From NCBI GenBank assembly GCA_964549615.1, contig CAZJVP010000075.1:1-18845 (forward strand): DNA of 18,845 bases, in the 5' to 3' direction. The translations under genes were made by a program, and so were the position numbers. Below the pieces are notes generated by a model, which saw only the letters and a list, made by a program, of their open reading frames with translations, did not search any database and was not told where the DNA came from. This DNA comes from an uncultured Thermococci archaeon. Lineage in GTDB: Archaea > CAYQAE01 > CAYVLA01. Numbering within the stretch: the first letter of the stretch is position 1; every line of letters starts with the position of its first letter. Shown here one piece after another: positions 1,358-18,845 of the stretch.

Positions 1358-1425
1358 TGCCTCGCCGTCCTCAATCCCTGAGCGTGCGTAGCCAAGACGT
1401 CGCCAAAGAGCGGCATCCCGCCGAC

Positions 1426-2993: not shown

Positions 2994-2995
2994 GC

Positions 2996-4273: not shown

Positions 4274-4313
4274 CTTACTCCTCCAACCTACCTGCTTGAG
4301 CCTTGCCCCGCCC

Positions 4314-4328
4314 AGATATATCTTTGTC
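4314..4328 (-). promoter_or_regulatory. Probable internal BRE/TATA promoter for AMPD-PMDh
   Basis: Minus strand reads GACAAAGATATATCT, about 45 nt upstream of ATG 4273; AGATATATCT is palindromic. Confidence 0.45.
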
Positions 4329-4369
4329 AGCCCTCGCACGGCCCTGGAAGCCCGCCGATTCCCGCATCC

Positions 4370-5353
4370 TCAGACACCAATCATCGTTCTGAAGGCCTCG
4401 TACCCCTTGGCCTCCATCGCCCGCGCCACCTTCTCTTGGAGCCGCTTCTGCGGCGTCAATGCAACCATGTAGCCCCCGAGTCCACCTCCGGTCAGTTTGG
4501 CCCCGTAGGCCCCGTTCCTCCTCGCAAGTTCCACGAGCTCGTCCAGCTTGGGATGCGAAACCTCGATCTCCTGCAGAAGCGTGTGGTTCTGGTTCATGAG
4601 CCTGCCCAACGCGCGCAGATCGTACCTGCGTAAAGCCGCATCCGCCTTGCCCACGAGGGCCATTGCCTCTCTGAATATCCTGTCGTACTTCGCCGGTTCC
4701 TTCTCCTTCCTTTCCCTCACACCCGCGACTGCTGCCTTCGTGTCGGCGGTGATGCCGGTGTTTCCCATCACGATCCTGATGGGCCTCTTGACTTTGAGCA
4801 GTTCGATCCGGTTTTCCCCACCGCTTAGGTTCTTTTCGAATCGCAGGAGTCCGCCATAGGTGGATGCCGTGTTGTCTATGCCGGAAGGGGTCCCTGCGTA
4901 GGCCTTCTCTCCCTCGTACGCAATCTGGTTTATTCGCGCATCGTCGAAGCCCAACCTGAACTCATCGTTCAACGCCCTTGCCAAAGAGACGCAGACGGCG
5001 GCGCTGGCCCCTATTCCCCCTACTGCCTTCAGGTCGCCGCCCAGCGTGATCCTAATGTTGTTCTCGGTCGGGTCAAAACCTGCGGCCTTGAAAACCAAGA
5101 GGACGGACTCCTTCTGTTGTTGGTACTTTTCCTTCTTGTATCCAGGGTTTGCGGGCCTATTATCCTCCAGCACCCATCCGTCCCCCGCCATGGAGCCTTC
5201 GTTGCCGGAGGGAACCAACAGCCGCGGATCTTTCACCCTCTCGACGATGGCCTCCGTCCTCGAATCGATGGCCGATGCTATGGACGGGATGCCGTAGACG
5301 ACGAAATGCTCGTTGAACAGGATGACCTTCCCGAATCCGCTGCCTACGCCCAT
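4370..5353 (-). CDS. mvk: Mevalonate kinase (GHMP family)
   Basis: Motifs GKVILFNEHFVVYG, GIGASAA, GTPSGIDN, LMNQNH, GAKLTGGGLGG; pathway context. Confidence 0.92.
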   Translation of the reverse strand: MGVGSGFGKVILFNEHFVVYGIPSIASAIDSRTEAIVERVKDPRLLVPSGNEGSMAGDGWVLEDNRPANPGYKKEKYQQQKESVLLVFKAAGFDPTENNIRITLGGDLKAVGGIGASAAVCVSLARALNDEFRLGFDDARINQIAYEGEKAYAGTPSGIDNTASTYGGLLRFEKNLSGGENRIELLKVKRPIRIVMGNTGITADTKAAVAGVRERKEKEPAKYDRIFREAMALVGKADAALRRYDLRALGRLMNQNHTLLQEIEVSHPKLDELVELARRNGAYGAKLTGGGLGGYMVALTPQKRLQEKVARAMEAKGYEAFRTMIGV

Positions 5354-5576
5354 ACGCGCGCCTCCCTTGACCTGACCCGGTTTCTATGGCTCTTTCATAT
5401 ATTTGTGTTGGGTTGGCGAGGGGGATCAACCGCAGGCCTCGCCAGCCAGATCCTTCCTTCTCGGCCCGACCATCGTTGCCCAATCTCGCAACAAGATTAT
5501 TATTCCGCACCCCTGGACCAAGGTGCGGTCTCAGGCCGGCCGGGACCCGACAGTCGCGGATCGATAGGTGGCCTGG

Positions 5577-6401
5577 ATGCCGAATCTAGTCATAAAGATC
5601 GGCGGTTCCTTCCTCACGAAGAAATCCCGCAGCAACGACTTCCCAACCTCGATAGAGGAGATCGAGGCACAGAGGGACAGGTTCGTAGAGTGGCGATACC
5701 TTAGGTCGCTCTCCTGGGAGATCCGCAGGATCGCCAAGGCGAACCGGATGCTCATCGTTCACGGCGCCGGACCCTTCGGCCACTCGCTTGTGCAGCGCGC
5801 GCTCTCGGGCCTAAGCATCGACCCCGCCGTGATACACCGTTCCATGCTCATCCTGAACTCCGCCGTCCTTGAAGCGCTGTCCGACGCCGGACTTCAGCCT
5901 AGGACGACCAGCCCCTTCGAGACCGTCCGGTTCAACGGCAGGTTCCGAACGGACGAGCTCGTGTCCCTGATGAAGAAGCATGCGGACGAGGGACTTGTCC
6001 CGGTATCTCACGGGGACGTCGTCCGAGCGGTCTCTGCGAAGGGGCGGCTGGGGGACTATGAGGTCATATCCGGGGACCTTGTCGCCCGGGACCTAGCGCT
6101 CGCCTGGCCGGCAGATAGGCTCATTATGGTGACCGATGTCGACGGAATTCTGGATCAAGACCCCTCCGAGGGAGGTGGAAGGACGATCCCCAGGATCAGT
6201 CAGGCAGACTGTCTCTCCCTGTTGAGGGGCAGGACTGCGAAAGGCGCCGACGTCACTGGCGGGATCGCGCAGAAGATCGCCAGTTGCGAGGATTCCATCA
6301 GATCCGGCATTCCGCTCCACATCATCTCGGGCAAGAGGAAAGGCAGCCTTCTAGAGGCCGCGAGGGGGGGTAAGGTGGGGACGGTGGTCGAGGCCTCGTG
6401 A
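5577..6401 (+). CDS. ipk: Isopentenyl phosphate kinase (amino acid kinase family)
   Basis: Motifs IKIGGS, VHGAGPFGH (IPK signature His), HGDV, ISGD, TDVDGI, DVTGGI..K. Start is probably ATG 5577 after AGGTG (ORF track gives GTG 5568). Divergent from mvk. Confidence 0.88.
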   Translation: MPNLVIKIGGSFLTKKSRSNDFPTSIEEIEAQRDRFVEWRYLRSLSWEIRRIAKANRMLIVHGAGPFGHSLVQRALSGLSIDPAVIHRSMLILNSAVLEALSDAGLQPRTTSPFETVRFNGRFRTDELVSLMKKHADEGLVPVSHGDVVRAVSAKGRLGDYEVISGDLVARDLALAWPADRLIMVTDVDGILDQDPSEGGGRTIPRISQADCLSLLRGRTAKGADVTGGIAQKIASCEDSIRSGIPLHIISGKRKGSLLEAARGGKVGTVVEAS

Positions 6402-7996
6402 CCAGCGAATCCGGCCGCCAGTACATCGAGCATCCGCTGATCAAACCGCGAACGATCGAGGCTAGGCTGTATCAACAGCTCGTCTATGCCAAGGCAGTCG
6501 AATCGAACACTCTCTTCGTCGCCCCAACGGCTCTGGGAAAGACGGTGCTCTGCATCATGGTCGCAGCCCACCGGCTACAAAGGCAGGGCGGAAGGGTACT
6601 CATCCTGGCCCCGACGCGGCCCCTCGTCCTCCAGCATGCTAGGTCGTGCAGGAAGTTCCTCGCGATTCCCGAGGAAAAGATCATGGACTTCAGCGGGACC
6701 CTGGATCCGAACGAAAGGGAGGCGCTCTGGCCGACGGCTACCGTTGCGGTTGCAACCCCCCAAGTCGTTGAGAACGATATTCGGGCAGGCAGGTTGGAGA
6801 TGAGCCACTACTCGCTCGTCGTGTTCGACGAGGCGCATCGCGCCGTTGGCGACTATGCCTATGTGACGATAGCTAAGGCCTACAGGAGATCCCGTCCCGA
6901 CCCGCTCGTGCTGGGCCTTACGGCATCCCCCGGCAACAGGGAGGAGGTCGTACGCGAGGTCTGCGACAACCTGGGCATCGTCAACATCGAGGCGAGAAGC
7001 GACGATGACCCGGACGTTAGACCCTACATCAACCCCGTCGAGGTCGATTGGAGGCTCGCGACCCTGCCGCAGCCGGTCCAAGAGATAGTCAGGGGTATGG
7101 AGGACTTCCTCGAAGAGCACACAAGATCGCTGAGGGAGATCGGCTTGATCAGAACCCCAAGCGTAACTAGGAAGGACCTGCTCGAAGCGGGTAGAGTGCT
7201 CAGCATAGGGGCGGAGAGGTTTTCCGCTTCATTCGGGAGGCCCCCCTTCATGTATTACAGGGCTCTCATGGACTACGCGATTGCCCTCAAGGCCGAACAC
7301 GCGCTCGAGATGCTCGAGACACAAGGAATCGAGCAGACCCTCCGATACTTCGACAGGATGGCACAGGATGCAACCTTGAAGCAGGCTGCGAGATCGACCA
7401 AGTCCTTCATTCGGGATCCTAGGATCGCTGGGTTCGTGGCTTCGCTGCGCAGGCTTGCGAGGGCCGGGATCGAGCATCCCAAACTCCGAGAGATGGCAAG
7501 GGTGATCTCCGAGGAGCTTTCGCGCGATCCGAACAGCAGGATCATCATCTTCACGAACTTCAGGGACAGCGTGGACCTGATCGTCGGATACCTGTCCCAC
7601 GATCCTCGGGCCAGGGTCACAAGGTTCGTCGGCCAGTCCTCAATGCGCTCCAAGGGTCTGAGCCAGAAGGAGCAGGCACAGATCCTTGACCTATTCAGGA
7701 CGGGAAAGTACAACGTCCTAGTTGCCACCTCCGTCGCGGAGGAGGGCCTGGACATACCCGAGGTTCAGATGGTGGTCTTCTACGACTGTACCCCAAGCGC
7801 CATCCGCAACATCCAGAGGCGGGGTCGCACGGGCAGAAAAGGGGCGGGCAAGGTGGTCATCCTGATGACCCAGAACACGAGGGAAGAGGCTTATCACTGG
7901 GCCGGCCACCAAAGGGAGAAGAAGATGAGGGAGCTACTCAAGAGACTCGACGGCGACCTGAAAAACAGGCAGATGAAGCTCAGCGACTTTGCCTAG
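6398..7996 (+). CDS. Hef/FANCM/Mph1-like SF2 helicase lacking an ERCC4 nuclease domain
   Basis: Motifs R.YQ, APTALGKT, LAPTRPLV.QH, FDEAHRA.GDYAY, GLTASPG, HPK, FVGQ...KGLSQKEQ, ATSVAEEGLDIP, IQRRGRTGR; ends in QMKLSDFA. Confidence 0.9.
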   Translation: MTSESGRQYIEHPLIKPRTIEARLYQQLVYAKAVESNTLFVAPTALGKTVLCIMVAAHRLQRQGGRVLILAPTRPLVLQHARSCRKFLAIPEEKIMDFSGTLDPNEREALWPTATVAVATPQVVENDIRAGRLEMSHYSLVVFDEAHRAVGDYAYVTIAKAYRRSRPDPLVLGLTASPGNREEVVREVCDNLGIVNIEARSDDDPDVRPYINPVEVDWRLATLPQPVQEIVRGMEDFLEEHTRSLREIGLIRTPSVTRKDLLEAGRVLSIGAERFSASFGRPPFMYYRALMDYAIALKAEHALEMLETQGIEQTLRYFDRMAQDATLKQAARSTKSFIRDPRIAGFVASLRRLARAGIEHPKLREMARVISEELSRDPNSRIIIFTNFRDSVDLIVGYLSHDPRARVTRFVGQSSMRSKGLSQKEQAQILDLFRTGKYNVLVATSVAEEGLDIPEVQMVVFYDCTPSAIRNIQRRGRTGRKGAGKVVILMTQNTREEAYHWAGHQREKKMRELLKRLDGDLKNRQMKLSDFA

Positions 7997-8319
7997 ATCT
8001 TCCTTCTGAACTCGCGCTTCCGCAAGATCCTGAGAAGCACGCTCTTCAGCTTGTAGTTCTCGGCGCAGGCATTGTTCTTCATCTCAAACTCCACGGCGCC
8101 CAAGATGTCCTCGGTCTTGTTCTTGATGCCCTTGGCGAACATGCCCATGCTTGCCTTTCCGTAGAGATCCGCCGCCTCACGGTAGAGCTCGGCAGCCTTC
8201 TTGAGGAGCGCGACGCGAAGTTGGTGATCGCTCTTCTCGTTATAGGCTTTGATAAGGTACATATCGGCTTGGCCCTCAAGCCACGATGCCTTCCTGACGT
8301 GGTCGGCCTCGAACCTCAA
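7993..8319 (-). CDS. Small helical hypothetical protein (about 108 aa)
   Basis: Open frame filling the gap between known genes. A TATA-like AAAGAAGATTTATATTT at about 8351-8367 lies inside the ORF-track N-terminus (8382), so the start is probably TTG 8319. Confidence 0.6.
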   Translation of the reverse strand: MRFEADHVRKASWLEGQADMYLIKAYNEKSDHQLRVALLKKAAELYREAADLYGKASMGMFAKGIKNKTEDILGAVEFEMKNNACAENYKLKSVLLRILRKREFRRKI

Positions 8320-8459
8320 TCCAGCACCGGCGGTGCTCTGAATCCCATCGAAATATAAATCTTCTTTATGGAGAGTTAGCAAAAGAATATCCCGATTTTC
8401 TTTTCGGCATCTGCAATCCCATCCCAGAACGGGATAGGAACAGCGACATTCGGCTTGTT

Positions 8460-9302
8460 CTAACCCACAATCCGCAGCGCAACGTCCAAGGACTTCGGGG
8501 AATGCGTCAGGGCACCCACCGAGATGACGTCAACTCCGGTTGCGGCAATCTCGCATACGTTATCCAAAGTTATGTTCCCGGATGCCTCGACCAGCACCTT
8601 CTCCCTCAGCCCCTCGCGCTCGAGAGCAGCCAAGGTCCGCTTCATCTCCGAGATCGGCATGTTGTCCAACATCACCACATCCACCCCGGCCCTGGCCGCG
8701 CGCAATGCATCCTCGCAGTTTCCAACCTCCACCTCGATCCTCTTCATGAAACTGGCACCGGATTTTGCCCTCTCGATGCAGACCAGGATGTCGCCCACCG
8801 CGGCGACGTGGTTGTTCTTGATCAGGATGGAGTCGTGAAGGGCAAGCCTGTGCGTGTCGCCTCCTGCAAGGGCCACGGCCCTCTTGTCAAACCACCTTAG
8901 CCCAGGCCCCGTCTTCCTGGTCGCTGCGATCCTGACGTTGGGATTCACTGCGCGTGCAACCTCCACGAACTCGGATGTCAGCGTCGCCACACCGCTCATC
9001 CTCGCGATCAGGTTAAGCAGGGTTCTCTCCACCATGAGGATGGATCGGTTTAGTCCCTTCATCCGCAGAATTGGACCCGGCGATGCCTTGGAGCCATCCT
9101 CGACCGCGTCCGTGACCTGGATCTCGTACATCTCTAGGAGTTCCCTTGCCTCGGCGATCCCCGCCACCACTCCGTCCTCGCGAAGGAAAACGACCGCCTC
9201 GGCCTGCCGCGGCTCGACCACGAGCTCCGTCGTCGTGTCGCCGAACGAAAGGTCTTCCTGCAAGAAGTATCTAAGCCTGTCCCTCAGCAATGGATCGACC
9301 AA
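8460..9302 (-). CDS. nadC: Quinolinate phosphoribosyltransferase (nicotinate-nucleotide pyrophosphorylase)
   Basis: Motifs ED...GD.TT, ERTLLN...RMSGVAT, ATRKT.PGLR, HR..L.D.ILIK.NH, EVEV, MLDNM, EASGNI, GVDVIS.GALTHS. Confidence 0.96.
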   Translation of the reverse strand: MVDPLLRDRLRYFLQEDLSFGDTTTELVVEPRQAEAVVFLREDGVVAGIAEARELLEMYEIQVTDAVEDGSKASPGPILRMKGLNRSILMVERTLLNLIARMSGVATLTSEFVEVARAVNPNVRIAATRKTGPGLRWFDKRAVALAGGDTHRLALHDSILIKNNHVAAVGDILVCIERAKSGASFMKRIEVEVGNCEDALRAARAGVDVVMLDNMPISEMKRTLAALEREGLREKVLVEASGNITLDNVCEIAATGVDVISVGALTHSPKSLDVALRIVG

Positions 9303-9306
9303 CCCC

Positions 9307-10284
9307 TCACCCCGTCAGGTCCAGCATCCGCTGCGTCACCCTTCTAACGCCCTCCGCAATCCTCCGTCTCACCTTGACCTCGTGGATTCCCCGCTCAAGG
9401 CTTAGCTCCAGCTTCCTCAGGTCGGTTTCCTGCATGCTCCGGCACAGCGCGTTGTCAAGAATCGGGTGGAAGGTCTTGGTCGGAAACCTCGCGGCGAGGG
9501 TCTGTGCCATGGTCGCCTCCGTTCCAATCACGAACTCCGTTGCACTGGACTCCAAGACCCTCTTCACCATGCCGCCCGTGCTGACCACGAAATCCGCCAG
9601 CCGGACAACTTCCGGGTCGCACTCCGGGTGAACGAGCACCTCGGCTTTGGGGTGGGCCGACCTCGCCCTCAACACGTGTTCGGGACGGATCATCTTGTGG
9701 ACGTAGCAGCAGCCGTCGGAGGGCATGGGAATGATCCTTTTTCCCGGGACCTTGCCCGACACGTATAGCCCGAGGTTCCTGTCCGGACCAAAGAGAATCT
9801 CCTCGGCATCTATCCTGGAGACTATCTCCACCGCGTTTGCCGACGTGCAGAGCACGTCTGCCTCCGCCTTCGCCTCCGCCAGGGAGTTTATGTAAAGCAC
9901 GACGGCCGCGTCCGGATGCTCTCTCTTCGCCCGCCTGACCTGTTCGGCCCTAAGCATCGCGGCCATGTCGCAGGTTGCCGTTAGGCTGGGGATGAGCACC
10001 TTCTTCCCTGGGTTCAACGCCGCCGCGCTCTCAGCCATGAAGTCGACCCCGCAGAAGACTATCTCCTCGAAGCCCGACGCCCTGGTTGCCGCAAGACAGA
10101 GTTCGAGGGAATCGCCGACATGGTCGGAAACTCTCTGCACCTCAACCTTCTGGTAGTTGTGGCAGAGCAGAAGCGCTGCCTTCTGCCTCTTGAGCTCCCT
10201 GATTCGCTCCGCAATCTCTGCATTGGATTCTGACGAAATGGGCTCTGCCAATGCGCTTCGTGAACTCAACTCGATCACCCTCAT
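9307..10284 (-). CDS. nadA: Quinolinate synthase A
   Basis: Motifs HNYQ, GDSLEL, FCGVDFMAESA, C.MA, YINS.AE.KA, CTSANA, FGPD.NLG, C.VH, VHPEC, STGGM, IGTE, C..M. Confidence 0.96.
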   Translation of the reverse strand: MRVIELSSRSALAEPISSESNAEIAERIRELKRQKAALLLCHNYQKVEVQRVSDHVGDSLELCLAATRASGFEEIVFCGVDFMAESAAALNPGKKVLIPSLTATCDMAAMLRAEQVRRAKREHPDAAVVLYINSLAEAKAEADVLCTSANAVEIVSRIDAEEILFGPDRNLGLYVSGKVPGKRIIPMPSDGCCYVHKMIRPEHVLRARSAHPKAEVLVHPECDPEVVRLADFVVSTGGMVKRVLESSATEFVIGTEATMAQTLAARFPTKTFHPILDNALCRSMQETDLRKLELSLERGIHEVKVRRRIAEGVRRVTQRMLDLTG

Positions 10285-11066
10285 GCACCCAGCGACAGGG
10301 CCTCGCCCATGCCCTGTATCGACCGGATCACGGACAGGGCGGCGAGGTAGCTTGTCTTTGGGTTATCGGGCGAGGGCACGTTGGAGACTGCGATCTTCAT
10401 CTCCCCGAACGCCCCGCGGGCTACCACTTCGTGGGTATTCAGCCTCGCGTCGGGGTCCGCGACCATCCTGACTTTGACGTTTGTGCCGGAGGCAATCGCC
10501 ACCGCGGCCGCCACATTTATGTTCTTGGGAAAGAGCCTCACGGCCTCCTGGGCATCTCCCTCAAAGATGATGGTCTTTCTGGTGATCTTGCCGGCTTCCA
10601 GGCTGCTTGGATTCTTGGTCGTCGTCAGGACCACGCTGTCAAGCCCCTTCACGGCGGCTGCCTTGAGCAGGTCCAAACCACCTATCGCGCCCGAGGGGAC
10701 CACGATCCTCAACCTGTTGGCCTTAGCAAGCGAGACGAGTCTCCTCCGAAAGCCCTCGTCAAGCAGGGCGCCCACGCTCAGGACGACCAAGTTCTTGCCA
10801 GCAGACAGGATTCTCTCCGCATACGCACGGACGGCCTCTATGGAAGCCGCCTCGACGATCAAGTCCGTCGGCGCGGCGATGAACTCCTCAAAGGTCTTCT
10901 TGCACAGATCCGGCTGACCCAACGCGCCCGCCAGTGCTTCCGCCCTTCTACGGTCAGCGTCGTACAGGGCCCCGATCTCCACCTCCAGCTGGCCCTGCAT
11001 TACGGCCCTCGTTATGAAGGTTCCGACATTCCCGCACCCGAGCAATCCGATGATCGTGCCAGACAC
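10281..11066 (-). CDS. nadX: L-aspartate dehydrogenase
   Basis: GCGNVG Rossmann motif, EAAS, SVGAL, PSGAIGGLD, FEG.A.EA..LFPKNINVAA, NTHE, NVPSPDNPKTSYLAALS; operon with nadA and nadC. Confidence 0.94.
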   Translation of the reverse strand: MSGTIIGLLGCGNVGTFITRAVMQGQLEVEIGALYDADRRRAEALAGALGQPDLCKKTFEEFIAAPTDLIVEAASIEAVRAYAERILSAGKNLVVLSVGALLDEGFRRRLVSLAKANRLRIVVPSGAIGGLDLLKAAAVKGLDSVVLTTTKNPSSLEAGKITRKTIIFEGDAQEAVRLFPKNINVAAAVAIASGTNVKVRMVADPDARLNTHEVVARGAFGEMKIAVSNVPSPDNPKTSYLAALSVIRSIQGMGEALSLGA

Positions 11067-11144
11067 TTCCGTTTATGCTCGGACCATCGATCGGCGGCTA
11101 TTAAGTGTCTTCGGTTTGGCTCAGCCGGCCCTAAAAGATCTACG

Positions 11145-11576
11145 CTAAGCACTCTTCGACTCGACAACCATGATCTTCTCAAGCAGCTCCATCAGGTCCA
11201 AGAGTACCCCCGTGTTGGAGCTGATGCTCGCCGTGTCCGCCTGATCGGCCAATCTCTTCGAGTACTCGGATATGCGTTGGAGAACCACCCTCTTCAGGTT
11301 CGCAACCGTCGCGTCCAAGGCCTCCGACCCCAGATCGACCCCAGCTCGCGGCCCGCCGGATGAAGGCCGGGCAGGGGCTTTGGCCTGGGGGGGCTCCGCC
11401 TTCGCCGTCTCTGGCGAGGGAGCGCTTTCCTCCTCCCATCCGCACTTGCCGCAGAAAGTTCGCCCCTGGAACTTGAAAAGAGGCGCATTGCATTCAGGGC
11501 AGCCCCTGTTCAGCATCTTACCCCCTTTCAACAGGATGTCTGCCATGTTCTTTATCTCCGCGTTCTTACCCTCCAA
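11145..11576 (-). CDS. UPF0148 / Sjogren's syndrome-scleroderma autoantigen p27-like Zn-ribbon protein
   Basis: K.MADILLKGGKML...CPEC.APLF......FCGKC; SD GGTGA at 11581-11585; divergent from UPF0147. Confidence 0.85.
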   Translation of the reverse strand: MEGKNAEIKNMADILLKGGKMLNRGCPECNAPLFKFQGRTFCGKCGWEEESAPSPETAKAEPPQAKAPARPSSGGPRAGVDLGSEALDATVANLKRVVLQRISEYSKRLADQADTASISSNTGVLLDLMELLEKIMVVESKSA

Positions 11577-11586
11577 ATTCTCACCG

Positions 11587-11623
11587 GAAAAGAGATTTAT
11601 AGCGCTGGCTTAAAGTTTTGTTC
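11587..11623. promoter_or_regulatory. Overlapping divergent BRE/TATA promoters
   Basis: Plus strand GAAAAGAGATTTATAG (11587-11602); minus strand GAACAAAACTTTAAG (11623-11609). Confidence 0.6.
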
Positions 11624-11637
11624 AGGAGGATTGTACC

Positions 11638-11895
11638 ATGGATATTGAGGAGAAGATAAATGCCGCTTCTCGAGTTCTTGAGCAGATCACGGAGGATACG
11701 TCCGTCCCAAGGAACATAAGGCGGGCCGCCAAGGAAGCGGTGGACTGGCTGCAAGACAGGAAGCACACCCCGGGCGTCAGGGCGAGCTCGGCTGTGAACA
11801 TTCTGGACGAGATCAGCGAAGACCCCAACATGCCCGTCCATACCAGGACCATGATCTGGAACGTCGTTAGCGAGCTTGAGGTAATTCAAGACTAG
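11638..11895 (+). CDS. UPF0147 family protein
   Basis: D.SVPRNIRRAA......L......PGVRA..A...LDEIS.DPNMP.H.RT.IW...S.LE; SD AGGAGG. Confidence 0.92.
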   Translation: MDIEEKINAASRVLEQITEDTSVPRNIRRAAKEAVDWLQDRKHTPGVRASSAVNILDEISEDPNMPVHTRTMIWNVVSELEVIQD

Positions 11896-12032
11896 GCCCT
11901 TCCGGATGCCCGCCACCGACCTTCAGGCGATCCTCGCCATCGCTCGGGTGAAGGCCGAACCGGCTTGCTTGCGCGCTAGGAGACGTCGGGGCACAAGGGC
12001 ACAAGGCTAACGTTTTCTCGATCTGCCCGTAC

Positions 12033-12116
12033 TCAGTAGATCACGTACTCGATGATGTACGCGACCATCGCGAAGACGAGTACCCAGTACGCGATGCTGA
12101 AATAGAGGAACCTCAA
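12033..12116 (-). CDS. Candidate 27-aa single-pass membrane microprotein
   Basis: TTG start gives MRFLYFSIAYWVLVFAMVAYIIEYVIY; preceded by SD-like AGGTGG and a BRE/TATA CAGAAAATATTTTTAAG at about 12151-12167; GC-rich third codon positions like the neighbouring genes. Confidence 0.5.
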   Translation of the reverse strand: MRFLYFSIAYWVLVFAMVAYIIEYVIY

Positions 12117-12228
12117 AGCCTTGCCACCTGCCCTCCCGGGCGCATTTCCGCTTAAAAATATTTTCTGGACGCCCTTTTGCCGCCGTGGGCAGCCTCTCGA
12201 GTTCCAGTTTTTCATTCCGCGGTCAATA

Positions 12229-12807
12229 TCACCTGCGTTTGACAATCCGGTAATGTAGCACGCTCTTTCCGTCCTCAACCGCATCCAGAATCGTCCCAGA
12301 CAGGTAGTAGAGCGCCGGATGAACCCTGTACTCGATCTGTTCGCCCTTCCTTGAGTCCTCCAAGATGAGAACCGGTCGACCCTCGGAGAGCTTGGACACC
12401 GGCGGATGAAGAGTTCGCCACAGCGCGTTTTTCTCCCTCGACCCTACAACCGGGTCCGAGGCCCTTGCTAACGAGCTCGCGCGGTTCAGGACAACCAAGC
12501 CAACGTCGGGCATCGAACCCGCGGACCGAAGGCCGCCTGCCAGCGACTCGACGTCCTCGAGATGGCTCAGCAGGATCCTCGAGGCCTCCCGCTCCGCAAG
12601 CTGAGATCTGTAGGCTTCGAAGGTGATGGTGCGATCGCAGTCCAACACGACGGCCCTCAGTCCCCTCCGCGCAGTCGCAATACAAGCTTCGACTGCTAGG
12701 TCGATGTTGGCCCGAGGGTGTCGACCCAGCAAGAGGAAGACCCCGCCACCTGCCATCAGCTGGGACACCTCACCTCGGGCCAGCAGCAGCCCCTCGTTCT
12801 GCGTCAT
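12229..12807 (-). CDS. Degenerate RecA/RadB-like P-loop fold protein (probably inactive ATPase)
   Basis: Start is ATG 12807 after GGAGG; the longer ORF-track start overlaps the tRNA. The strand/helix pattern GVFLLLG-RHPRANI-DLA...RGLRAVVLDCDRT...RILLS...VGLVVLNRAS...RPVLILE resembles RecA-family topology with degenerate Walker motifs. Confidence 0.5.
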   Translation of the reverse strand: MTQNEGLLLARGEVSQLMAGGGVFLLLGRHPRANIDLAVEACIATARRGLRAVVLDCDRTITFEAYRSQLAEREASRILLSHLEDVESLAGGLRSAGSMPDVGLVVLNRASSLARASDPVVGSREKNALWRTLHPPVSKLSEGRPVLILEDSRKGEQIEYRVHPALYYLSGTILDAVEDGKSVLHYRIVKRR

Positions 12808-12827
12808 GCCCTGCCTCCGAGAAGGGA

Positions 12828-12961
12828 TAGCCCGGTACGGATTTTCGGCCGGATTCTCCGGCATTCGAACCGCAGTCCGCGGATCTCCCCGAATCTGCTT
12901 CTCCAGAGTCCGCGATGCTTTCGTGGAGGGCGTGAACCCTTGACCACTACACCACCGGGCT
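12828..12961 (-). tRNA. tRNA-Gln(CTG) with three introns (12941-12921, 12902-12885, 12863-12842)
   Basis: Spliced sequence is AGCCCGG TG GTGT AGTGGTCAA GCAT C GCGGA CTCTGGA TCCGC GGAC TGCGG TTCGAAT CCGTA CCGGGCT A (73 nt, no encoded CCA). It has the A1-U72 pair typical of archaeal tRNA-Gln, and each intron forms a BHB-type motif. Confidence 0.93.
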
Positions 12962-12994
12962 ATGCTAGGGCACAACCACTTTGAGCGGTTTTCT

Positions 12995-13007
12995 CTTAAC
13001 TATTTCC
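12995..13007 (-). promoter_or_regulatory. Probable tRNA promoter
   Basis: Minus strand reads GGAAATAGTTAAG(A), about 35 nt upstream of tRNA position 1. Confidence 0.45.
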
Positions 13008-13099
13008 TGCCTTCGGCCCATCCACCACCCAAGTGTCCGAGGCCCCAAAGAAAGAGATAATAGGCCCACGGCGGTCGCGGGGGTCTTGGTGGTCGTGGT

Positions 13100-14125
13100 T
13101 TGACCAAGATGAAATGGGCTAATCTCGTTACCCCGACGAAGATCGTCATCGAGGAAACGGACATCCCTGAACCCAAGCCGGGCGAGATACAGGTGAAGGT
13201 GGCTGTCTGCGGCATCTGCGGGTCGGACGTCCATGCCTATGGCGGCAAACACCCGTTCGTGAAGACGCCCATAGTGCCGGGGCATGAGTTCTCCGGGACG
13301 GTTTCGGCCATCGGGGAGGGCGTCACCGGTTTTGCCATCAAGGACAGGGTCGTCGTCGAGCCATCGCTGACCTGTGGCAAGTGCTACAACTGCCGCAACG
13401 GCCTCTACAACATCTGCACAGAGCTCAAGGTGCTCGGCTGCCAAGCTCCCGGCGCCTTTGCGCAGTACATCTCGGTTCCGGCAAACAAGGTCTACAAGAT
13501 GCCTAGGCGGATGGACTTCGACGACGGAGCCTTCGTCGAACCGGCGGCCGTTGGAGTGCACGCAGTCAAGAAGAGCGAGATCAAGCTAGGGGACCGCGTC
13601 GTAATCCTTGGCGCAGGGGTCATAGGCTACATGATACTACAGGCCGCCCGGCTGGCAGGGGCCGGCGAGATCATCGTTGCGGGCCATCACGAGGAGAGGC
13701 TTGCTCTGGCCAAGAAACTCGGCGCCGACGTCACGTTCTTGGCAGGCGACACGGTGAAGTTCATCAGGGACACGTACGGCCCCGACGGAATCGACATAGT
13801 TTACGAGGCAGTCGGGGTCGGAACCACGATCAACCAGGCCATCGACATCGTTCGAAAGGGCGCTAAGGTCATCGTGGTAGGCGTCTTCGGCGAGCACCCG
13901 GCTACGAAGGTCGGACTGATCCAGGACAAGGAGATAGACATGCGGGGCAGCCTCATGTATGTGGGAACCGACTACCCCACGACGCTGAAGCTCATCTCCT
14001 CGGGCAAGATAAAGACCAAGCCCCTCATAAGTGCCAGGTTCCCGCTTGAGCGCGTCTCGGAGGCCTTCGACCTGATACGGCAGAAGAGGGCCGAGACGGT
14101 GAAGGTGCTCCTAGACATCCCCTAG
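13100..14125 (+). CDS. Zn-dependent medium-chain dehydrogenase (sorbitol/threonine dehydrogenase-like)
   Basis: GICGSDVH, PGHEFSG, structural Zn site CGKCYNC.....NIC, EP.AVGVH, GAGVIG. Start is TTG 13100 or ATG 13109. The substrate cannot be determined from sequence. Confidence 0.9.
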   Translation: MTKMKWANLVTPTKIVIEETDIPEPKPGEIQVKVAVCGICGSDVHAYGGKHPFVKTPIVPGHEFSGTVSAIGEGVTGFAIKDRVVVEPSLTCGKCYNCRNGLYNICTELKVLGCQAPGAFAQYISVPANKVYKMPRRMDFDDGAFVEPAAVGVHAVKKSEIKLGDRVVILGAGVIGYMILQAARLAGAGEIIVAGHHEERLALAKKLGADVTFLAGDTVKFIRDTYGPDGIDIVYEAVGVGTTINQAIDIVRKGAKVIVVGVFGEHPATKVGLIQDKEIDMRGSLMYVGTDYPTTLKLISSGKIKTKPLISARFPLERVSEAFDLIRQKRAETVKVLLDIP

Positions 14126-14132
14126 GAGCCTC

Positions 14133-17100
14133 TCATCTTCGTCGCAACGCCATTCGAAGGGAAAGAACGGCCAAGCAACCAACCAAGATCAGCCCCATGG
14201 CCAAGGGCAGGATCGTGGTGGGCGCCCTAACAGTGCCTATTGTACCTCCGGCCGGCCCCGGCTCCGCGGGCTCCGGCCCGAACTTTGAGGCGACCTCGCC
14301 GCTCACCACGAACTTCTGCCCAGCTGCCTCGGTGCGCACGTCCGGCTTGTAGTAGGAGTAGGCCCTGCTAGTTCCACCCAGGGCTCTTACCGGGAAAAGG
14401 GCCCTGATCTTGAAACCGATCCGCAACTCCCGGCCCCTCTCCAGGTCGTCGATGTAGAAGATCACCTTCCTGCCAGCCACCTCGACCCTCGTGGCAAGCC
14501 CCTGGGATACGACTTCGTCCAGGCTGGACTGAACCGGGGCAAAGCCCGTAGGCACCGCGATGTCCAGTATCGTCATCCCCGTCGAGTTGTACGGGCCGTC
14601 GTACCTGACCCTTACGTACACGTCCACTATGTCGTCGACCTCCGCGCTGGTCGTATTGTACTTGACCTCGAGCATGAACTCGGGATTCACGAACACCTCG
14701 CCGGGCACATTGAACCGCTTCGCCAGCTGGAACATCACTTTGCCCTCGCCAGCCATGACAAGCTCCAGCCTCTTTGCACCAGCAGGCATCTGCAACACCT
14801 GAAGCACGTCGAAGTTGTCCTCGGTGAGCTTGATCTTCGCGATGGTTGAGCCGTCGACCACCACATCGATCGTTGAGTTGATGTTCCTGGACTGCAACCT
14901 TGCAGCCGTCATGAGCGCCTTCATCGCCATGACGGTATCCTGGGTGCTGCAGAAGCCGCCAAGGGAGTTCCTTTGGCAAGCTATCCACCGAACGGCGGGC
15001 TCAGCCTCCGATCTCCCCGCCAGCATCAGTGCGAGAGCGGCATACGCGGTGGTCTCCACGGCGTTTGCCCTCTCCCTCCCTGGGGCCCAGTACATCCCGT
15101 TCTCATCAGTCTGCGCCAACGCCAGAAGCCTGAGCAAAGCGGCTTCGGCCTTGGGCGATCCAACCTTCTGTAGCAGAAGCGCGGTCAAGGCCAGGGAGTA
15201 GACGTCATCGGTGATCCCGTAGGCCTCAAGGTAGGACACCGCCCTTCTGAGCGAATCTTGGTTCCCCGAGCCATAGTCCGTCAGCGCGATGGCAACGAAC
15301 GCCGTCAAGGCGGATTTCGCCTCGGGCCGCAGGCCGCCCATCATCTCTTGGTGGCACACGAAGCCGAACGGGCTCCATGAGCCATTGGCGTTCTGGAGCG
15401 ACTCGATCCACGACGCGGCCTCCTTCAGCACGACCTCGTCAATGCTCAACACCTCCCTTGCCTCGCTGAAGACATCCAGGACGAAGGCCGTCAGCCACAG
15501 GCTGCCCTCCTTGTCGCTCTCGCCGAAGGCCGAGAAGGAGCCGTCCTTGCGGCGGAACGTGAGCTCCCTCTGGTAGCCGGTGATCAGGTACAGCTCGGCC
15601 TTCGCCCTCACCTCTGGCACAACTTGGTCCGTCGCGTCGAGGTACCTGAGTATCTCAAGGTCGGGCGCCATGAACATCATGTTCTGCTCTCCGCACCCGA
15701 AGGGCATCCCCAAGAGGTCCTCCATGCCGCTTATCGTCTGGCCGACGAGGCTGGGCGTGATGCTGAGCAATACCCGCCCGGAACCTTCGACGATCCCGTC
15801 CGGGAGGGAGAGGTCCAGACTCCTAGGCTCGGTCTGGGTTATGAACCCGTTCTCCACGATCTCCCTGGGCGTCCCCTCAGCCTCCACGAGGATGTCCCTT
15901 CTCACGGCATCGGCCCTCTCCGCGGTGCGCGCCGTGATCTCGATCTTGAACTGCCCGATCTTCTTGGGTTCGATCGTGAAGGCGACCGATGCAACCGAGT
16001 TGCCCGGCACAGCGACGATCTTCACCCTATCGTCAAGAAGCTGGAACCAGTCATCCTTCGTGATCTCAACCTGCACGGTCTGGCTCCTCTCAAGATAGTT
16101 GTAGATCTGCACGAGGACCGGGAACTGTTCGCCCCGGGTAACGGCGTAGGGCAGGTCCGGCTCGACGAAGAAGTCCTGGAAAACCTTGAGCGATGTCTCG
16201 ACCATCCCAATCCCTTCCGCGCTTGACGATACGGCGTGAAGCCTCCATGTCGTTATCGTGTCGGGGACGGTCAGCTGAACCGCGGCATGTCCGCTCCTGT
16301 CGGTCAGCAGAGACGGGTTCCAGTACCATGTCTCTGGGAAGAACTGTCTGACCCGTTGGACCTCCGCCAAGCCCTGTGCGCCGGAAGTTGGCTGGCTTGG
16401 CTGGCTTCCCTGGGCTTGGTCCGCTACCTCGACCAGTATCCATGGACCTCCTCCCTTTCCTCTGATAACCCACTCCGGCGTGCCCTGCGGGACGTTCACC
16501 GAGCTTGAAGCAATGACCTGGACGCCCGCCTCTTCGAATATCTCCTTCGCGCCCTTCGTCATGGGGCCCCACCAGAACATTTCGCCCTGCGGGTGGGCCT
16601 CGGCCTGCGGCTCCATGAAGATCTTCTCCAACTCATCGAAGATCTGCTTGAGGTTTAGCCTGCCTTCGTTCAACGCGTAGACCGATTCATCCACTATGGA
16701 GACCCCGATCATCGTGGCCACCCCCGCGCTTGACTTCAGGTCTAGAGTGACCGTACCTCCGGGCGCCGACGTCTCACTTGAGAATGAGGCCGAAAGACCA
16801 ACAGGGGGCTCCATGGCGACGTCGAAAGGCAGGGAGTCGGCAGAAACCTCCATGTTTGGGTTGAGCACATAGGCAACCAACTTGGCCTTTGGAACCATGG
16901 AGGGCGTCGCCGTGAAGGACACGTATCTGCCCGTTGTGAAGCCGGAGAAGACGGTCCTGCCACCGGCCACCACGTCGTAGTAGACCGTTCTCTTCGCGGT
17001 GCTCAGGACCTCGAAGGTCACCGTATCCCCGACCCTGACCTCGCCTCGGGAGATCTGTTTGATGTGGACGAAGTAACCGCCCGGCGAGTACACGCTTTGC

Positions 17101-18398
17101 AAGCTGATCTCGGACTTAGCACTGCCGTCGGAGACCTGGGCAGCGATGCTGGCGCTGGTGCACGTGTCTGGAACGTTCAGGTCGGTCGTGCCGAGGCCTC
17201 GGAACGTTGGGACGCGCCTAGTCTCCTTCGTTGTGCTACCGTCCTTCAGGTAGTAGGTCGCGTCGACCTGCACAACCCTGTCAAGCGGATCACCGCCCGG
17301 CGTCTCGGTCACCAGCAAGATGTCCAAGGGGAGGCCGGGCTTCACGGTCTCGCTTGAGGGGATGATCTGAACCACGATCGGTGATTGGCATATTCTCAGA
17401 AGAAGCGATTCCTTCTCCTCGTGCCCAGCGCCATCCACGACGCTGACGTTCAGCATCACCGAGCCCATGCCGCCCGCTCCGAGGGTCCCGGCGAGGTAGT
17501 TCACCTCGGGTATCTCGAACCTCGCTGCGCCATCCCTAAGCTTCGCCCTGAAAGTTGCGAATTCCTCCCAGTCAGCCAGGTACTTGTAGGCCCGGATCTC
17601 AACCATGCCGTCCACCGGCTTGCCGAAGAAGTAGTTTGCCTTCACCTCCCCCACGATCTCCTCGTCCACAAGGAACCAGTCCTTTGCGGTCGTGACGTCG
17701 ACGTCGAACTTGGGCAGGACGTACTTCTCGACCCGAATGTCGATGGTTGACATGCCTTCGGCGGCGTTCGCGAGGATCTTCCACGTCCCAAGGTTCAGCT
17801 CATTGGCCAGAAGAAGGTCAAAGCTCGCAACCCCGTACGCATCGGTGAAAAGCTCCTTGCGATATACCTTGACGCCCTTGGCATCGGATATCGAGACGTT
17901 TAGGGGGATCGCAACCGGCTTGAGCTCGGTGTTGAGGGCAAGCACCCTGCCGTGTATCGTCTGCCCCGGCTTGTAGATCGGCTTGTCCGTCTCGATCAGC
18001 AGGGTCAGGGCATCGGCAACCGTAACCTCGCCGCTTACCGATTCCCCGCGACCGGGCGAGGTGAGAACCACCTTATAAAGCCCCTTCTGCATCTGGGGGA
18101 CATCGAACCTCGCTATCAGGTGCCCATCCGGCCCGGTCCTTCCCTCGAAGATGACCAAGCCGTCGCCCTTCTGGTTTGGATCCACAAGAGTCAGCACGAC
18201 CTGCCGGTCGACGGGCTTGCCCGTCTGGGAGGAGAAGGAACTTATGCTCGCAGAGGACTGGGTCCCGACGTAGAGCCGTTTGGGGAACAGCATGATGTAC
18301 TCGGCGGAGGCCGGGTCGGCCAGGATCACGACTGGCGATATGATCTGTCCCAGGAGCAGGATCGAAACTGCCGGCAACAGCCTTCTAGTGCCCGACAT
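14133..18398 (-). CDS. Alpha-2-macroglobulin family thioester-containing protein (CD109/TEP/C3-like), with signal peptide and C-terminal transmembrane anchor
   Basis: Motifs ETDKPIYKPGQT, YVLPKF, VDESVY, VRQFFPETW, VPDTITTW, MPFGCGEQNM, GYQREL...DGSFSAFG, WLTAFV, HQEMMGG, VETTAY, GGFCSTQDT, YYKP; hydrophobic N-terminus ending ASA; C-terminal hydrophobic helix followed by RRR. Confidence 0.95.
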   Translation of the reverse strand: MSGTRRLLPAVSILLLGQIISPVVILADPASAEYIMLFPKRLYVGTQSSASISSFSSQTGKPVDRQVVLTLVDPNQKGDGLVIFEGRTGPDGHLIARFDVPQMQKGLYKVVLTSPGRGESVSGEVTVADALTLLIETDKPIYKPGQTIHGRVLALNTELKPVAIPLNVSISDAKGVKVYRKELFTDAYGVASFDLLLANELNLGTWKILANAAEGMSTIDIRVEKYVLPKFDVDVTTAKDWFLVDEEIVGEVKANYFFGKPVDGMVEIRAYKYLADWEEFATFRAKLRDGAARFEIPEVNYLAGTLGAGGMGSVMLNVSVVDGAGHEEKESLLLRICQSPIVVQIIPSSETVKPGLPLDILLVTETPGGDPLDRVVQVDATYYLKDGSTTKETRRVPTFRGLGTTDLNVPDTCTSASIAAQVSDGSAKSEISLQSVYSPGGYFVHIKQISRGEVRVGDTVTFEVLSTAKRTVYYDVVAGGRTVFSGFTTGRYVSFTATPSMVPKAKLVAYVLNPNMEVSADSLPFDVAMEPPVGLSASFSSETSAPGGTVTLDLKSSAGVATMIGVSIVDESVYALNEGRLNLKQIFDELEKIFMEPQAEAHPQGEMFWWGPMTKGAKEIFEEAGVQVIASSSVNVPQGTPEWVIRGKGGGPWILVEVADQAQGSQPSQPTSGAQGLAEVQRVRQFFPETWYWNPSLLTDRSGHAAVQLTVPDTITTWRLHAVSSSAEGIGMVETSLKVFQDFFVEPDLPYAVTRGEQFPVLVQIYNYLERSQTVQVEITKDDWFQLLDDRVKIVAVPGNSVASVAFTIEPKKIGQFKIEITARTAERADAVRRDILVEAEGTPREIVENGFITQTEPRSLDLSLPDGIVEGSGRVLLSITPSLVGQTISGMEDLLGMPFGCGEQNMMFMAPDLEILRYLDATDQVVPEVRAKAELYLITGYQRELTFRRKDGSFSAFGESDKEGSLWLTAFVLDVFSEAREVLSIDEVVLKEAASWIESLQNANGSWSPFGFVCHQEMMGGLRPEAKSALTAFVAIALTDYGSGNQDSLRRAVSYLEAYGITDDVYSLALTALLLQKVGSPKAEAALLRLLALAQTDENGMYWAPGRERANAVETTAYAALALMLAGRSEAEPAVRWIACQRNSLGGFCSTQDTVMAMKALMTAARLQSRNINSTIDVVVDGSTIAKIKLTEDNFDVLQVLQMPAGAKRLELVMAGEGKVMFQLAKRFNVPGEVFVNPEFMLEVKYNTTSAEVDDIVDVYVRVRYDGPYNSTGMTILDIAVPTGFAPVQSSLDEVVSQGLATRVEVAGRKVIFYIDDLERGRELRIGFKIRALFPVRALGGTSRAYSYYKPDVRTEAAGQKFVVSGEVASKFGPEPAEPGPAGGTIGTVRAPTTILPLAMGLILVGCLAVLSLRMALRRR

Positions 18399-18613
18399 TC
18401 AAATCACCAAGAGGCCTATGAGCTTCTTTTTACCGGGCTTCCCCGGATCACGCGCCCAATCTGGAGTGAAACGATACAAATAGCTTCCGTGAAACGGTCC
18501 GGAGTCTGCGAGTTTCCTACGGTCCGGCTTCCCTAGGGACTTTCCGGTGCCTGGCCAAGCCCGGATCTGCGGCCAACCGCATCCGGGGCCGGCCGGGCAC
18601 GCAGCTTTGGGAG

Positions 18614-18845
18614 CTACTTCTGCAAGAACTTCGACAGCTCGAACGGGATCGGGATTATCACGGTGGTGGGCTTGTCCCGGGTCGCATCCATCACCGCCCC
18701 CAACAGCCTCAAGAGCATTGCCCCCGGACTCTGGGTCATCACCTGGGTTGCCTTCGCCAGCTGGTCGGCGGCTTGCTGTTCGCCCTGGGCTATGATGACC
18801 CTGGAGCGCCTCTCCCTCTCGGCCTCGGCCTGCCTGGCCATAGCT
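18614..18845 (-). CDS. SPFH/Band 7 (stomatin-like, slipin) protein, 3' part
   Basis: AMARQAEAERERRSRVIIAQGEQQAA..L......PGAM.LR.L...TTVIIP.P.EL is the typical stomatin C-terminal coiled coil; the ORF runs off the window end. Confidence 0.9.
   Translation of the reverse strand, partial: AMARQAEAERERRSRVIIAQGEQQAADQLAKATQVMTQSPGAMLLRLLGAVMDATRDKPTTVIIPIPFELSKFLQK

Follow-up and report, generated by a model that had tools for sequence, protein, structure and literature searches.

The 18,845-bp contig CAZJVP010000075.1, here called the window, comes from the genome of an uncultured Thermococci archaeon (GCA_964549615.1), which comprises 3.21 Mb in 104 contigs with an estimated completeness of 99.5% and contamination of 2.8%. 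Its minus strand carries a gene for an alpha-2-macroglobulin/thioester protein (A2M/TEP), which is the only match to the thioester domain (TED) in the genome. The open reading frame (ORF) is complete, starts with ATG and ends with its stop codon, and encodes 1421 amino acid residues. Six Pfam families (MG2, MG3, A2M_BRD, A2M, TED_complement, and A2M_recep) were matched in canonical order, each far above the curated cut-off. Positions of the characteristic motifs were computed from the protein: FPETW starts at residue 687, GYQREL at 941, DGSFSAFG at 952, RNSLGGF at 1143, and STQDT at 1151. The ORF, its length and every motif named in a preliminary description of this DNA were thus found where that description had placed them, and the A2M-family domains it had recognized by their motifs correspond to the six Pfam matches.

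The gene product is a full-length member of the alpha-macroglobulin/TEP superfamily with an animal-type domain plan. In this plan, a ring of MG1–MG6 domains precedes a putative flexible bait/linker; MG7 comes next, then a CUB-like sandwich into which the TED is inserted, and finally MG8 (Table 1). The segment RQFFPETW precedes the Pfam A2M domain and is invariant in both alignments of relatives used in this study, A1 (14 sequences) and A2 (75 sequences). Pfam gave no match to anaphylatoxin (ANA) or C345C/NTR domains in this protein, in which the linker and the transmembrane (TM) helix come straight after MG8. The NCBIfam scan of the protein returned just weak squalene-cyclase-like matches to the TED toroid, far below the cut-off. 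The whole protein contains only 7 Cys residues and therefore lacks the disulphide framework of its animal counterparts.

Table 1. Layout of the A2M/TEP gene in window coordinates, with the corresponding protein residues
Feature	Residues	Position	Strand	Basis
Complete A2M/TEP protein gene (P0001)		14133..18398	-	ORF list, translation, six Pfam domains
Signal-peptide-like N-terminus (MSGTRR, hydrophobic core, PASA-EY)	1-32	18303..18398	-	Hydropathy; same pattern in L003
MG1-MG6 beta-ring region	33-576	16671..18302	-	Pfam MG2 135-221, MG3 225-274, A2M_BRD 449-576; N-half model
Putative bait/linker region	598-683	16350..16607	-	Low model confidence, poor conservation; bait role inferred from position matching CD109/A2M
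Pfam A2M domain (MG7-equivalent)	690-778	16065..16331	-	Pfam E 2.5e-29
Pre-TED beta-sandwich, first half of CUB-equivalent	779-879	15762..16064	-	C-half model strands; boundaries inferred
Thioester domain (TED, alpha/alpha toroid)	880-1163	14910..15761	-	Pfam TED_complement E 3.6e-70
Thioester motif MPFGCGEQNM (Cys902, Gln905)	898-907	15678..15707	-	Computed from sequence
His1016 codon (in VCHQEMMGG)	1016	15351..15353	-	Aligns with catalytic His position of C3, C4B, A2ML1, CD109
Post-TED beta segment, second half of CUB-equivalent	1164-1270	14589..14909	-	Model strands, structural alignment to native CD109/A2ML1/C3; boundaries inferred
A2M_recep (MG8/RBD-equivalent; covers thioester in native TEPs)	1271-1356	14331..14588	-	Pfam E 4.9e-15
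Gly/Pro/Glu-rich flexible linker	1366-1393	14220..14303	-	Predicted local distance difference test (pLDDT) <50 at C-half model residues 705-722
C-terminal TM helix and RRR tail (...ILPLAMGLILVGCLAVLSLRMALRRR)	1394-1421	14136..14219	-	Hydropathy 2.57; model helix at positions 724-747

The whole protein was compared with all sequences in the PDB. The best match was human CD109 (E 3.4e-119, residues 131–1320), followed by human A2M, A2ML1, mosquito TEP1, C4, C3, and C5, with no bacterial A2M among the 60 listed of 80 matches. When the TED alone was searched against the PDB with phmmer, CD109 scored 197 bits, A2M 153, TEP1 139, and C3d 120, whereas Escherichia coli YfhM (ECAM) scored 14–16 bits (E 0.05–0.25).

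Structures of the two halves of the protein were predicted by AlphaFold from 75-sequence alignments. The C-half model (residues 674–1421; pLDDT 86, predicted template modelling score 0.77) superposed on native CD109 with a TMq of 0.77 and a root-mean-square deviation of 4.0 Å over 701 columns comprising MG7, CUB, TED, and MG8, at 32% identity. Other native forms fitted about as closely, with TMq values of 0.78 for A2ML1, 0.77 for A2M, 0.75 for C5, 0.73 for TEP1, and 0.72 for C3, the last two being the comparison proposed in the preliminary description. Agreement with the activated forms was poor (0.33–0.34 for C3b, 0.43 for induced A2M, and 0.37 for active CD109). The N-half model (residues 28–683; pLDDT 81) is all-beta and matched the MG1–MG6 beta chains of C5, C4, and C3 with TMq values of 0.67–0.77, and CD109 with 0.72. 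Both ECAM/YfhM and Salmonella A2M were absent from the top 50 structural matches. The TED scores and the matches of the models to native TEPs agree with the earlier view that the architecture is that of animal CD109/A2M/TEP, and not of the ECAM/YfhM type.

Related loci were retrieved through other motifs of the protein (RQFFPETW and ETDKPIY), and the best 80 of at least 573 were examined. These span archaea and bacteria at 43–84% overall identity, and all 80 carry CGEQ: 76 in the longest ORF, and L026, L057, L059, and L067 in the family ORF that was used for A2. Within A2, the invariance of CGEQ is partly by construction, as ORFs were picked for GC[GL]EQ. His1016 does not vary in A1, and its conservation in A2 is at least 90%. 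Its segment VCHQEMMGG pairs with VIHSELQGG of CD109 in the TED alignment, which places a catalytic-type His ~110 residues after the thioester Cys, as in hydroxyl-reactive TEPs. In A2ML1, C3, and C4B, this His gives rise to an acyl-imidazole intermediate that reacts with hydroxyl and amine groups (PMC9156758; for this and all other papers cited here, statements refer to excerpts of the source). The conservation of CGEQ and of His1016 indicates that selection probably acts on thioester chemistry across the clade.

The region between the MG ring and MG7 may be a flexible segment. The pLDDT of the N-half model fell below 50 at residues ~578–609 and ~649–683. Residues 598–683 shared an identity of only 0.23–0.41 with the 74 relatives, with gaps in 7–18%, while the adjoining block 568–597 was 80% conserved.

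Hydrophobicity in 19-residue windows peaks at the two ends of the protein, in residues 7–27 and 1394–1418. At the N-terminus, mean hydropathy was 2.25 for the windows starting at residues 7–8, the putative signal cleavage site PASA-EY was read by eye, and no Cys occurs among the first 60 residues. The protein ends with ...LRMALRRR. A signal peptide together with a C-terminal TM helix and basic tail fits an ectodomain that would be tethered to the cell surface, the topology put forward in the preliminary description.

The C-terminal tail of ~55 residues (linker, TM helix, and basic end) is rare among the best 80 loci, where it occurs only in L003, L004, and L072, three loci from metagenome-assembled genomes (MAGs) titled Candidatus Hadarchaeota, and in another form in one Hydrogenedentota locus. 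The linker 1366–1393 is missing in 85–92% of the 74 relatives compared. Other archaeal and most bacterial relatives stop directly after MG8, and some Planctomycetota have other C-terminal extensions. Among these loci, the TM anchor is a feature of one small lineage and not a family trait, a point on which the preliminary description, with its TM-anchored CD109 analogue, went too far. We also compared 17 N-termini, each taken from the first Met of the ORF. The protein and L003 share a cleavable-looking signal with the PASA-EY end. Lipobox-like signals (...SGC or ...GGC) were found in all four sampled N-termini of Methanosarcinales/Altiarchaeales with upstream region (L011, L019, L040, and L047). 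Tethering thus recurs by different means, a C-terminal TM helix or a lipobox-like N-terminus, and therefore supports a role at the cell surface.

The genome also encodes two proteins of the exosortase/archaeosortase family (G000:C88:53688-54371 and C51:56558-57319), neither of which matched a named Art subtype above the cut-off. TM helices with basic C-terminal tails are present in 56 of the 6124 ORFs, ~8 of which contain a P[IV]PE or VPEP motif. The tail of the A2M/TEP protein has ILPL in place of this motif, and the NCBIfam CTERM models (PGF-CTERM, PEF-CTERM, and similar) did not match the protein. A plain TM anchor is therefore the simpler reading of this tail than an archaeosortase signal, as far as motifs can tell. 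As a separate observation, the ~8 proteins with P[IV]PE/VPEP, a TM helix, and an Arg/Lys end are large and lie on contigs C54, C48, C88, C101, C76, C9, and C16. These tails and the two archaeosortase-family genes could be an undescribed pair of sorting signal and sortase.

The gene lies in an archaeal context. Pfam identified the small and large AcnX subunits, a UbiD-like protein, a GHMP kinase, an amino-acid-kinase-fold protein (IPK-like), and an FMN-dependent IDI2-like protein. We take this set to be the archaeal modified mevalonate pathway, and its genes are compactly clustered at 278–6401. The ORFs of the large AcnX (1806–3074) and the UbiD-like protein (2996–4339) overlap as listed, probably because of over-long start calls. 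The window further encodes a Hef-like helicase, and three further genes were read by eye from their translations as nadC, nadA, and aspartate dehydrogenase. The A2M/TEP gene is flanked by an alcohol dehydrogenase gene and by a partial gene at 18614–18844 (minus strand). The partial gene, whose product is possibly stomatin/SPFH-like, had no Pfam match, and neither had orf7993 and orf12229. These last two (7993–8382 and 12229–12975, both on the minus strand) are syntenic in the Hadarchaeota-titled relatives, where the product of orf12229 is 42–46% and that of orf7993 79–80% identical. Scans of the window for tRNA genes and Rfam families found nothing.

Because the gene lies no more than 450 bp from a contig end, in an assembly of 104 contigs with some estimated contamination, it might have been a bacterial or eukaryotic gene misassembled or misbinned onto an archaeal contig. 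The closest loci are those in the Hadarchaeota-titled MAGs (L003 at 74%, L004 and L072 at 64%; best 80 of at least 573). The order A2M–alcohol dehydrogenase–orf12229–p27–aspartate dehydrogenase–nadA–nadC–orf7993–Hef is identical in L003, which comes from a 109-kb contig, and in L004; L072 has A2M, alcohol dehydrogenase, and orf12229 in common with the window. Within the phylum grouping, the gene is present in four of five genomes: all four members of its own family, representing three genera, have it, and the one genome from the other family lacks it. In the Logan assembly of sequencing run X1, one contig of 35,961 bp spans positions 9000–18098 with 4 differences, and a second contig extends beyond the window end. 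X1 is possibly the source sample, so the assembly is independent but the sample is not. The three runs that contain parts of the stretch all carry the label hot-spring metagenome; only X1 contains most of it (0.96 of the sampled words), against 0.18 for X2 and 0.08 for X3. The GC content is flat over the window (0.57–0.63). With the gene order kept across these MAGs and an independent assembly spanning the junction, we discarded assembly chimera and contamination, and an artefactual origin of the gene is extremely improbable. The preliminary description had set the gene in an archaeal context and had advised that contig integrity be verified; the neighbouring Pfam set, the archaeal MAGs that are the nearest relatives of the whole block, and the second assembly bear out both.

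At 18069–18644, which covers the 5′ end of the A2M/TEP gene and the spacer upstream of it, the X1 assembly splits into short alternative contigs of 61–203 bp. These show 0–9 differences from the window and one 1-base insertion near 18605, which suggests strain variation or a repeat. This break region may explain why the contig ends at 18845.

We then determined how widely the protein is distributed. In a search of 5.8 billion clustered proteins, 3348 matches were obtained among 8000 candidates scored, and the best 120 were listed. Many of these are annotated as "alpha-2-macroglobulin family protein" (NCBI) or "CD109 antigen" (JGI). Their sources include Methanolobus (M. psychrophilus R15 AFV24188.1 and M. 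tindarius DSM 2278), Methanococcoides methylutens, Methanomethylovorans, ANME-2, Candidatus Methanogaster, a "Theionarchaea" MAG, Planctomycetota, and Anaerobaca lacustris. When residues 680–1421 were scanned without a profile against 1.84 billion cluster representatives, 13,721 matches were obtained at E<=1e-3 and 2825 at E<=1e-30. In a scan of one genome per prokaryotic species, at least 599 pattern matches were found, of which at least 573 encode a relative. The best 80 of these loci belong to Hadarchaeota, Methanosarcinales, Methanoperedens, Altiarchaeales, and Micrarchaeota among archaea, and to Planctomycetota, Omnitrophota, Hydrogenedentota, Nitrospirota, and Chloroflexota among bacteria. 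Annotated proteins with an identity of about 50% occur in Methanolobus, Methanococcoides, ANME-2, Planctomycetota, Omnitrophota, and Chloroflexota. In two Sedimentisphaerales loci (L057 and L059), a second ORF of 1800 residues with CTEQ or GCLEQ and a different C-terminus adjoins the GCGEQ-type gene. Some Planctomycetota thus seem to have two adjacent A2M paralogues that differ in type.

In the excerpts of Makarova et al. 2021, TEDs with intact CxEQ are reported in 27 proteins of 24 archaeal genomes, and the A2Ms of Methanomicrobia are placed near bacterial homologues and regarded as probably transferred from bacteria (PMC8416519). Among the latter they name M. psychrophilus WP_015053894.1, which may be the same protein as AFV24188.1. 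Our literature search found no paper on an A2M of Hadarchaeota. The family to which the archaeal protein belongs, as an ordinary member, is already annotated, has been briefly described, and is widespread among anaerobic archaea and bacteria; the sole local peculiarity of the protein is its C-terminal TM anchor. The preliminary description had cautioned that archaeal homologues might already be annotated. This is the case in Methanolobus, Methanococcoides, and many MAGs, and A2M homologues with intact CxEQ have been described from archaea (PMC8416519); the protein is not new. It had also opposed the GCGEQ motif of animal proteins to the YGCLEQ motif of bacterial lipoproteins. This opposition is too simple, as GCGEQ is found in Planctomycetota, Omnitrophota, Chloroflexota, Hydrogenedentota, and Nitrospirota.

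Phylogenetic trees were calculated for the region homologous to residues 680–1365. The FastTree analysis comprised 190 rows: 114 that remained after coverage filtering of 119 cluster representatives of at least 1150 residues and P0002, P0007, and P0010; 74 loci; the archaeal protein; and YfhM. When rooted on YfhM, the tree contained a basal clade of 74 proteins with a GCFEQ motif. The GCGEQ clade (support 99) was divided into Chloroflexota-type and Cys-rich proteins (98) on one side and Omnitrophota-type, Planctomycetota-type, and archaeal proteins (99) on the other. The GCFEQ proteins, which lie within P0154–P0269 and outside the GCGEQ clade, have 1500–1900 residues and few Cys and are 31–36% identical to the archaeal C-half.

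The Cys-rich proteins form a eukaryotic clade, in which the sources give names for nine rows: fish and skate CD109, snail TEP, a mussel protein, and proteins from the sponge Oscarella, Trichoplax (CD109), an annelid (A2M), a horseshoe crab (PZP-like), and the green alga Cymbomonas. The horseshoe-crab row was named through a cluster member, and the remaining rows were assigned by clade membership, Cys content, and glycosylphosphatidylinositol (GPI)-like tails. Some members of the eukaryotic clade (P0192, P0155, P0156, P0200, and P0217) lie outside the animal sequences that have names; these are a partial protein of Cymbomonas tetramitiformis and several Ala-rich and Cys-rich proteins whose tails are GPI-like. 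Unless these are contaminants, TEPs may thus occur in non-animal eukaryotes.

A second tree was inferred by IQ-TREE (LG+C20+F+G4 PMSF, quick search) from 71 hand-picked rows that cover all clades. YfhM was excluded because of its branch of 3.5 units, so the root rests on the GCFEQ clade. The GCGEQ clade (support 100), Eukaryota (98), and Eukaryota with the Chloroflexota type (99) were recovered. Archaea grouped with the Planctomycetota and Omnitrophota types (86), and the monophyly of all archaeal proteins received a support of 45. The Hadarchaeota-type clade (6 rows) and the clade of Methanosarcinales, Micrarchaeota, and Altiarchaeales (12 rows) were supported at 100 and 98, respectively. An exclusive clade of archaea and eukaryotes was rejected (77.4 log-likelihood units worse, approximately unbiased test p-AU 5.4e-5); this constraint was named after the first tree had been seen, though it is the hypothesis that the preliminary description implies. 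As this clade is rejected and the archaea group with bacteria, the archaeal protein is no closer to the animal TEPs than its bacterial relatives are.

On both trees, the archaeal protein is placed among the prokaryotic GCGEQ proteins. It does not nest in the ECAM type. The preliminary description had named nesting within ordinary bacterial A2M clades as an outcome that would count against it. With respect to the ECAM type this outcome did not occur, but the protein does group with bacterial GCGEQ proteins. Rooting on either YfhM or the GCFEQ clade puts the eukaryotes inside prokaryotic diversity, and both rootings involve long branches. The direction of the ancient exchange between prokaryotes and eukaryotes cannot be read from an unrooted tree. 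That the prokaryotic GCGEQ proteins, the archaeal clade included, are the ancient pool behind eukaryotic TEP, A2M, CD109, and complement, and not recent loans from animals, is conceivable but on balance doubtful. The supposed bearing of this protein on the origin of complement is accordingly changed: a special link between the archaeon and eukaryotes is not supported, given the rejection of the constrained tree, and an indirect bearing remains through the whole prokaryotic GCGEQ radiation.

The most likely function, which we hold with somewhat better than even confidence, is that of a monomeric, surface-tethered, and conjugation-dependent protease trap like CD109, A2ML1, and ECAM. CD109 is a monomeric surface-bound inhibitor, in which bait cleavage causes a conformational change that exposes the thioester, and the protease is then conjugated (PMC12927315); the mechanism of A2ML1 is likewise described in the excerpts of PMC9156758. 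By analogy, the signal peptide would direct export of the archaeal protein, which its single C-terminal TM helix would keep on the outside of the membrane, with the RRR end in the cytoplasm. A foreign protease would cut the exposed bait (598–683). The protein would then rearrange, and the Cys902–Gln905 thioester, previously buried between the TED and MG8, would become exposed and conjugate the protease, thereby protecting the envelope proteins. The protease complex would stay on the cell and would not be shed as that of CD109, as no furin-type site precedes MG8. Formation of the thioester, cleavage of the bait, capture of the protease, and the protective role are all inferred.

We favor a protease trap because of the domains and motifs, the similarity to CD109, the native-type models, the conservation of CGEQ and His, and the disordered and variable bait region; further reasons are that tethering recurs by different means and that the gene is syntenic in all four genomes of the family (three genera). 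Several observations weigh against this function. No conserved neighbor hints at it, since clustering of 1027 flanking ORFs revealed no partner gene equivalent to pbpC and no cross-phylum family beyond an ABC-transporter-like group, which is present in 12 loci and was taken as chance. The PADLOC defence families gave no match. The native-like packing of the models may partly echo solved TEP structures learned by AlphaFold, and residues 58–87 and 388–417 are as variable as the putative bait. The putative cleavage site and membrane topology are read from the sequence, and the literature search found no paper on the biochemistry of any archaeal member. Finally, a His at the catalytic position would also suit the tagging of hydroxyl-bearing surfaces, as by complement or TEP1.

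In such tagging, the activated thioester, assisted by His1016, would attach the protein to sugars or proteins of viruses, DPANN-type epibionts, or competitors, which would be immobilized or marked at the surface. His1016 occupies the position that confers hydroxyl reactivity on C3, C4B, and A2ML1 (PMC9156758), native C3 and TEP1 fit the model nearly as well as CD109 does, and the excerpts of Makarova et al. 2021 treat archaeal A2Ms in a context of immunity and conflict (PMC8416519). Yet the protein lacks ANA and C345C domains, no convertase-like or LRIM-like genes lie nearby, and PADLOC found no match. Moreover, a protein fixed in its own membrane would be a poor diffusible opsonin, and the closest characterized relatives, CD109, A2M, and A2ML1, are protease inhibitors. 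We therefore regard tagging as rather unlikely. The same His1016 would also permit reaction with carbohydrate hydroxyls if the tethered thioester served as a covalent adhesin that bound the cell to biofilm polymers, a syntrophic partner, or a mineral-associated organic matrix. Gram-positive bacteria have thioester adhesins with a comparable outcome but a different fold. Such a role would agree with the surface tether and with the frequency of the family in organisms of sediments, hot springs, and consortia (ANME-2, Methanoperedens, and Planctomycetota). However, the thioester of all characterized TEPs is buried until proteolytic or chemical activation, the packing of the model is likewise buried and native-like, and the conserved bait-like insert points to triggering by proteases, which makes an adhesin quite improbable.

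It could also be that the TEP fold is kept for a structural or scaffold role in the envelope, with the reactive thioester not formed or not used. Thioester-free members of the superfamily do work: C5, which is among the matches here, is one example, and Pseudomonas MagD is another. The retention of CGEQ in 80 of 80 loci at 43–84% identity and of His1016 in at least 90% argues against this role, and we consider it very unlikely.

As an ordinary family member, the archaeal protein adds little by itself; the wider prokaryotic family has received less notice. Free-living anaerobic archaea and bacteria have very many TEPs (13,721 representatives; at least 573 loci) whose resemblance to human CD109 far exceeds that to the two structurally studied bacterial A2Ms. 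The excerpts of recent papers present bacterial A2Ms as structurally distinct from animal ones, or as mostly host-associated and animal-derived (PMC9156758, PMC13069473). If the prokaryotic proteins were indeed the ancient pool, the often-repeated idea that bacterial A2Ms originate from metazoan hosts would be reversed, and free-living archaea and bacteria would be the place to study the primordial thioester trap. Any relevance to how complement arose is indirect and lies with the prokaryotic GCGEQ radiation as a whole rather than with this archaeon. Cultured Methanolobus and Methanococcoides with 50%-identical homologues would offer direct access to the role of a thioester trap on the archaeal surface.

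The annotated archaeal and bacterial homologues are the nearest of the known systems, with 49–51% identity over 94–96% of the length and with the same Pfam set, GCGEQ, and His. They stop after MG8, whereas the archaeal lineage described here (four genomes) adds the linker, TM helix, and basic tail of ~55 residues. ECAM/YfhM and Salmonella A2M are thioester proteins of this superfamily that, as monomers, are likewise bound to the membrane. Both are described as covalent protease traps with extra N-terminal MG domains (PMC9156758). YfhM has 1653 residues and the thioester motif CLEQ, adjoins pbpC, and is called a lipoprotein in the names of its PDB entries. The archaeal protein has none of the lipoprotein signal, the extra MG domains, CLEQ, or the pbpC neighbor of YfhM, and its N-half fits the six-domain ring of animal proteins. 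With complement C3/C4 and insect TEP1, it shares the fold of MG ring, CUB, TED, and MG8, as well as GCGEQ and the catalytic His. It differs from these in having neither a chain-processing site nor partner genes, and its sequence is less similar to them than to CD109 and A2M.

The best sequence match is human CD109, a GPI-anchored monomeric inhibitor with known native (PDB 8S3O) and active (9FX3) structures, although in the trees the archaeal protein falls in the prokaryotic clade, outside the eukaryotic CD109 clade. Inspection of residues 1163–1271 by eye revealed no polybasic furin-type site, and release from the surface after activation is therefore not expected, unlike for CD109. The anchors also differ, as a TM helix with a basic tail takes the place of GPI. 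The two proteins nevertheless have in common the domain order, GCGEQ, the catalytic His, a putative bait-type insert, a C-terminal membrane tether, and a similar size (1445 residues in CD109 and 1421 in the archaeal protein).

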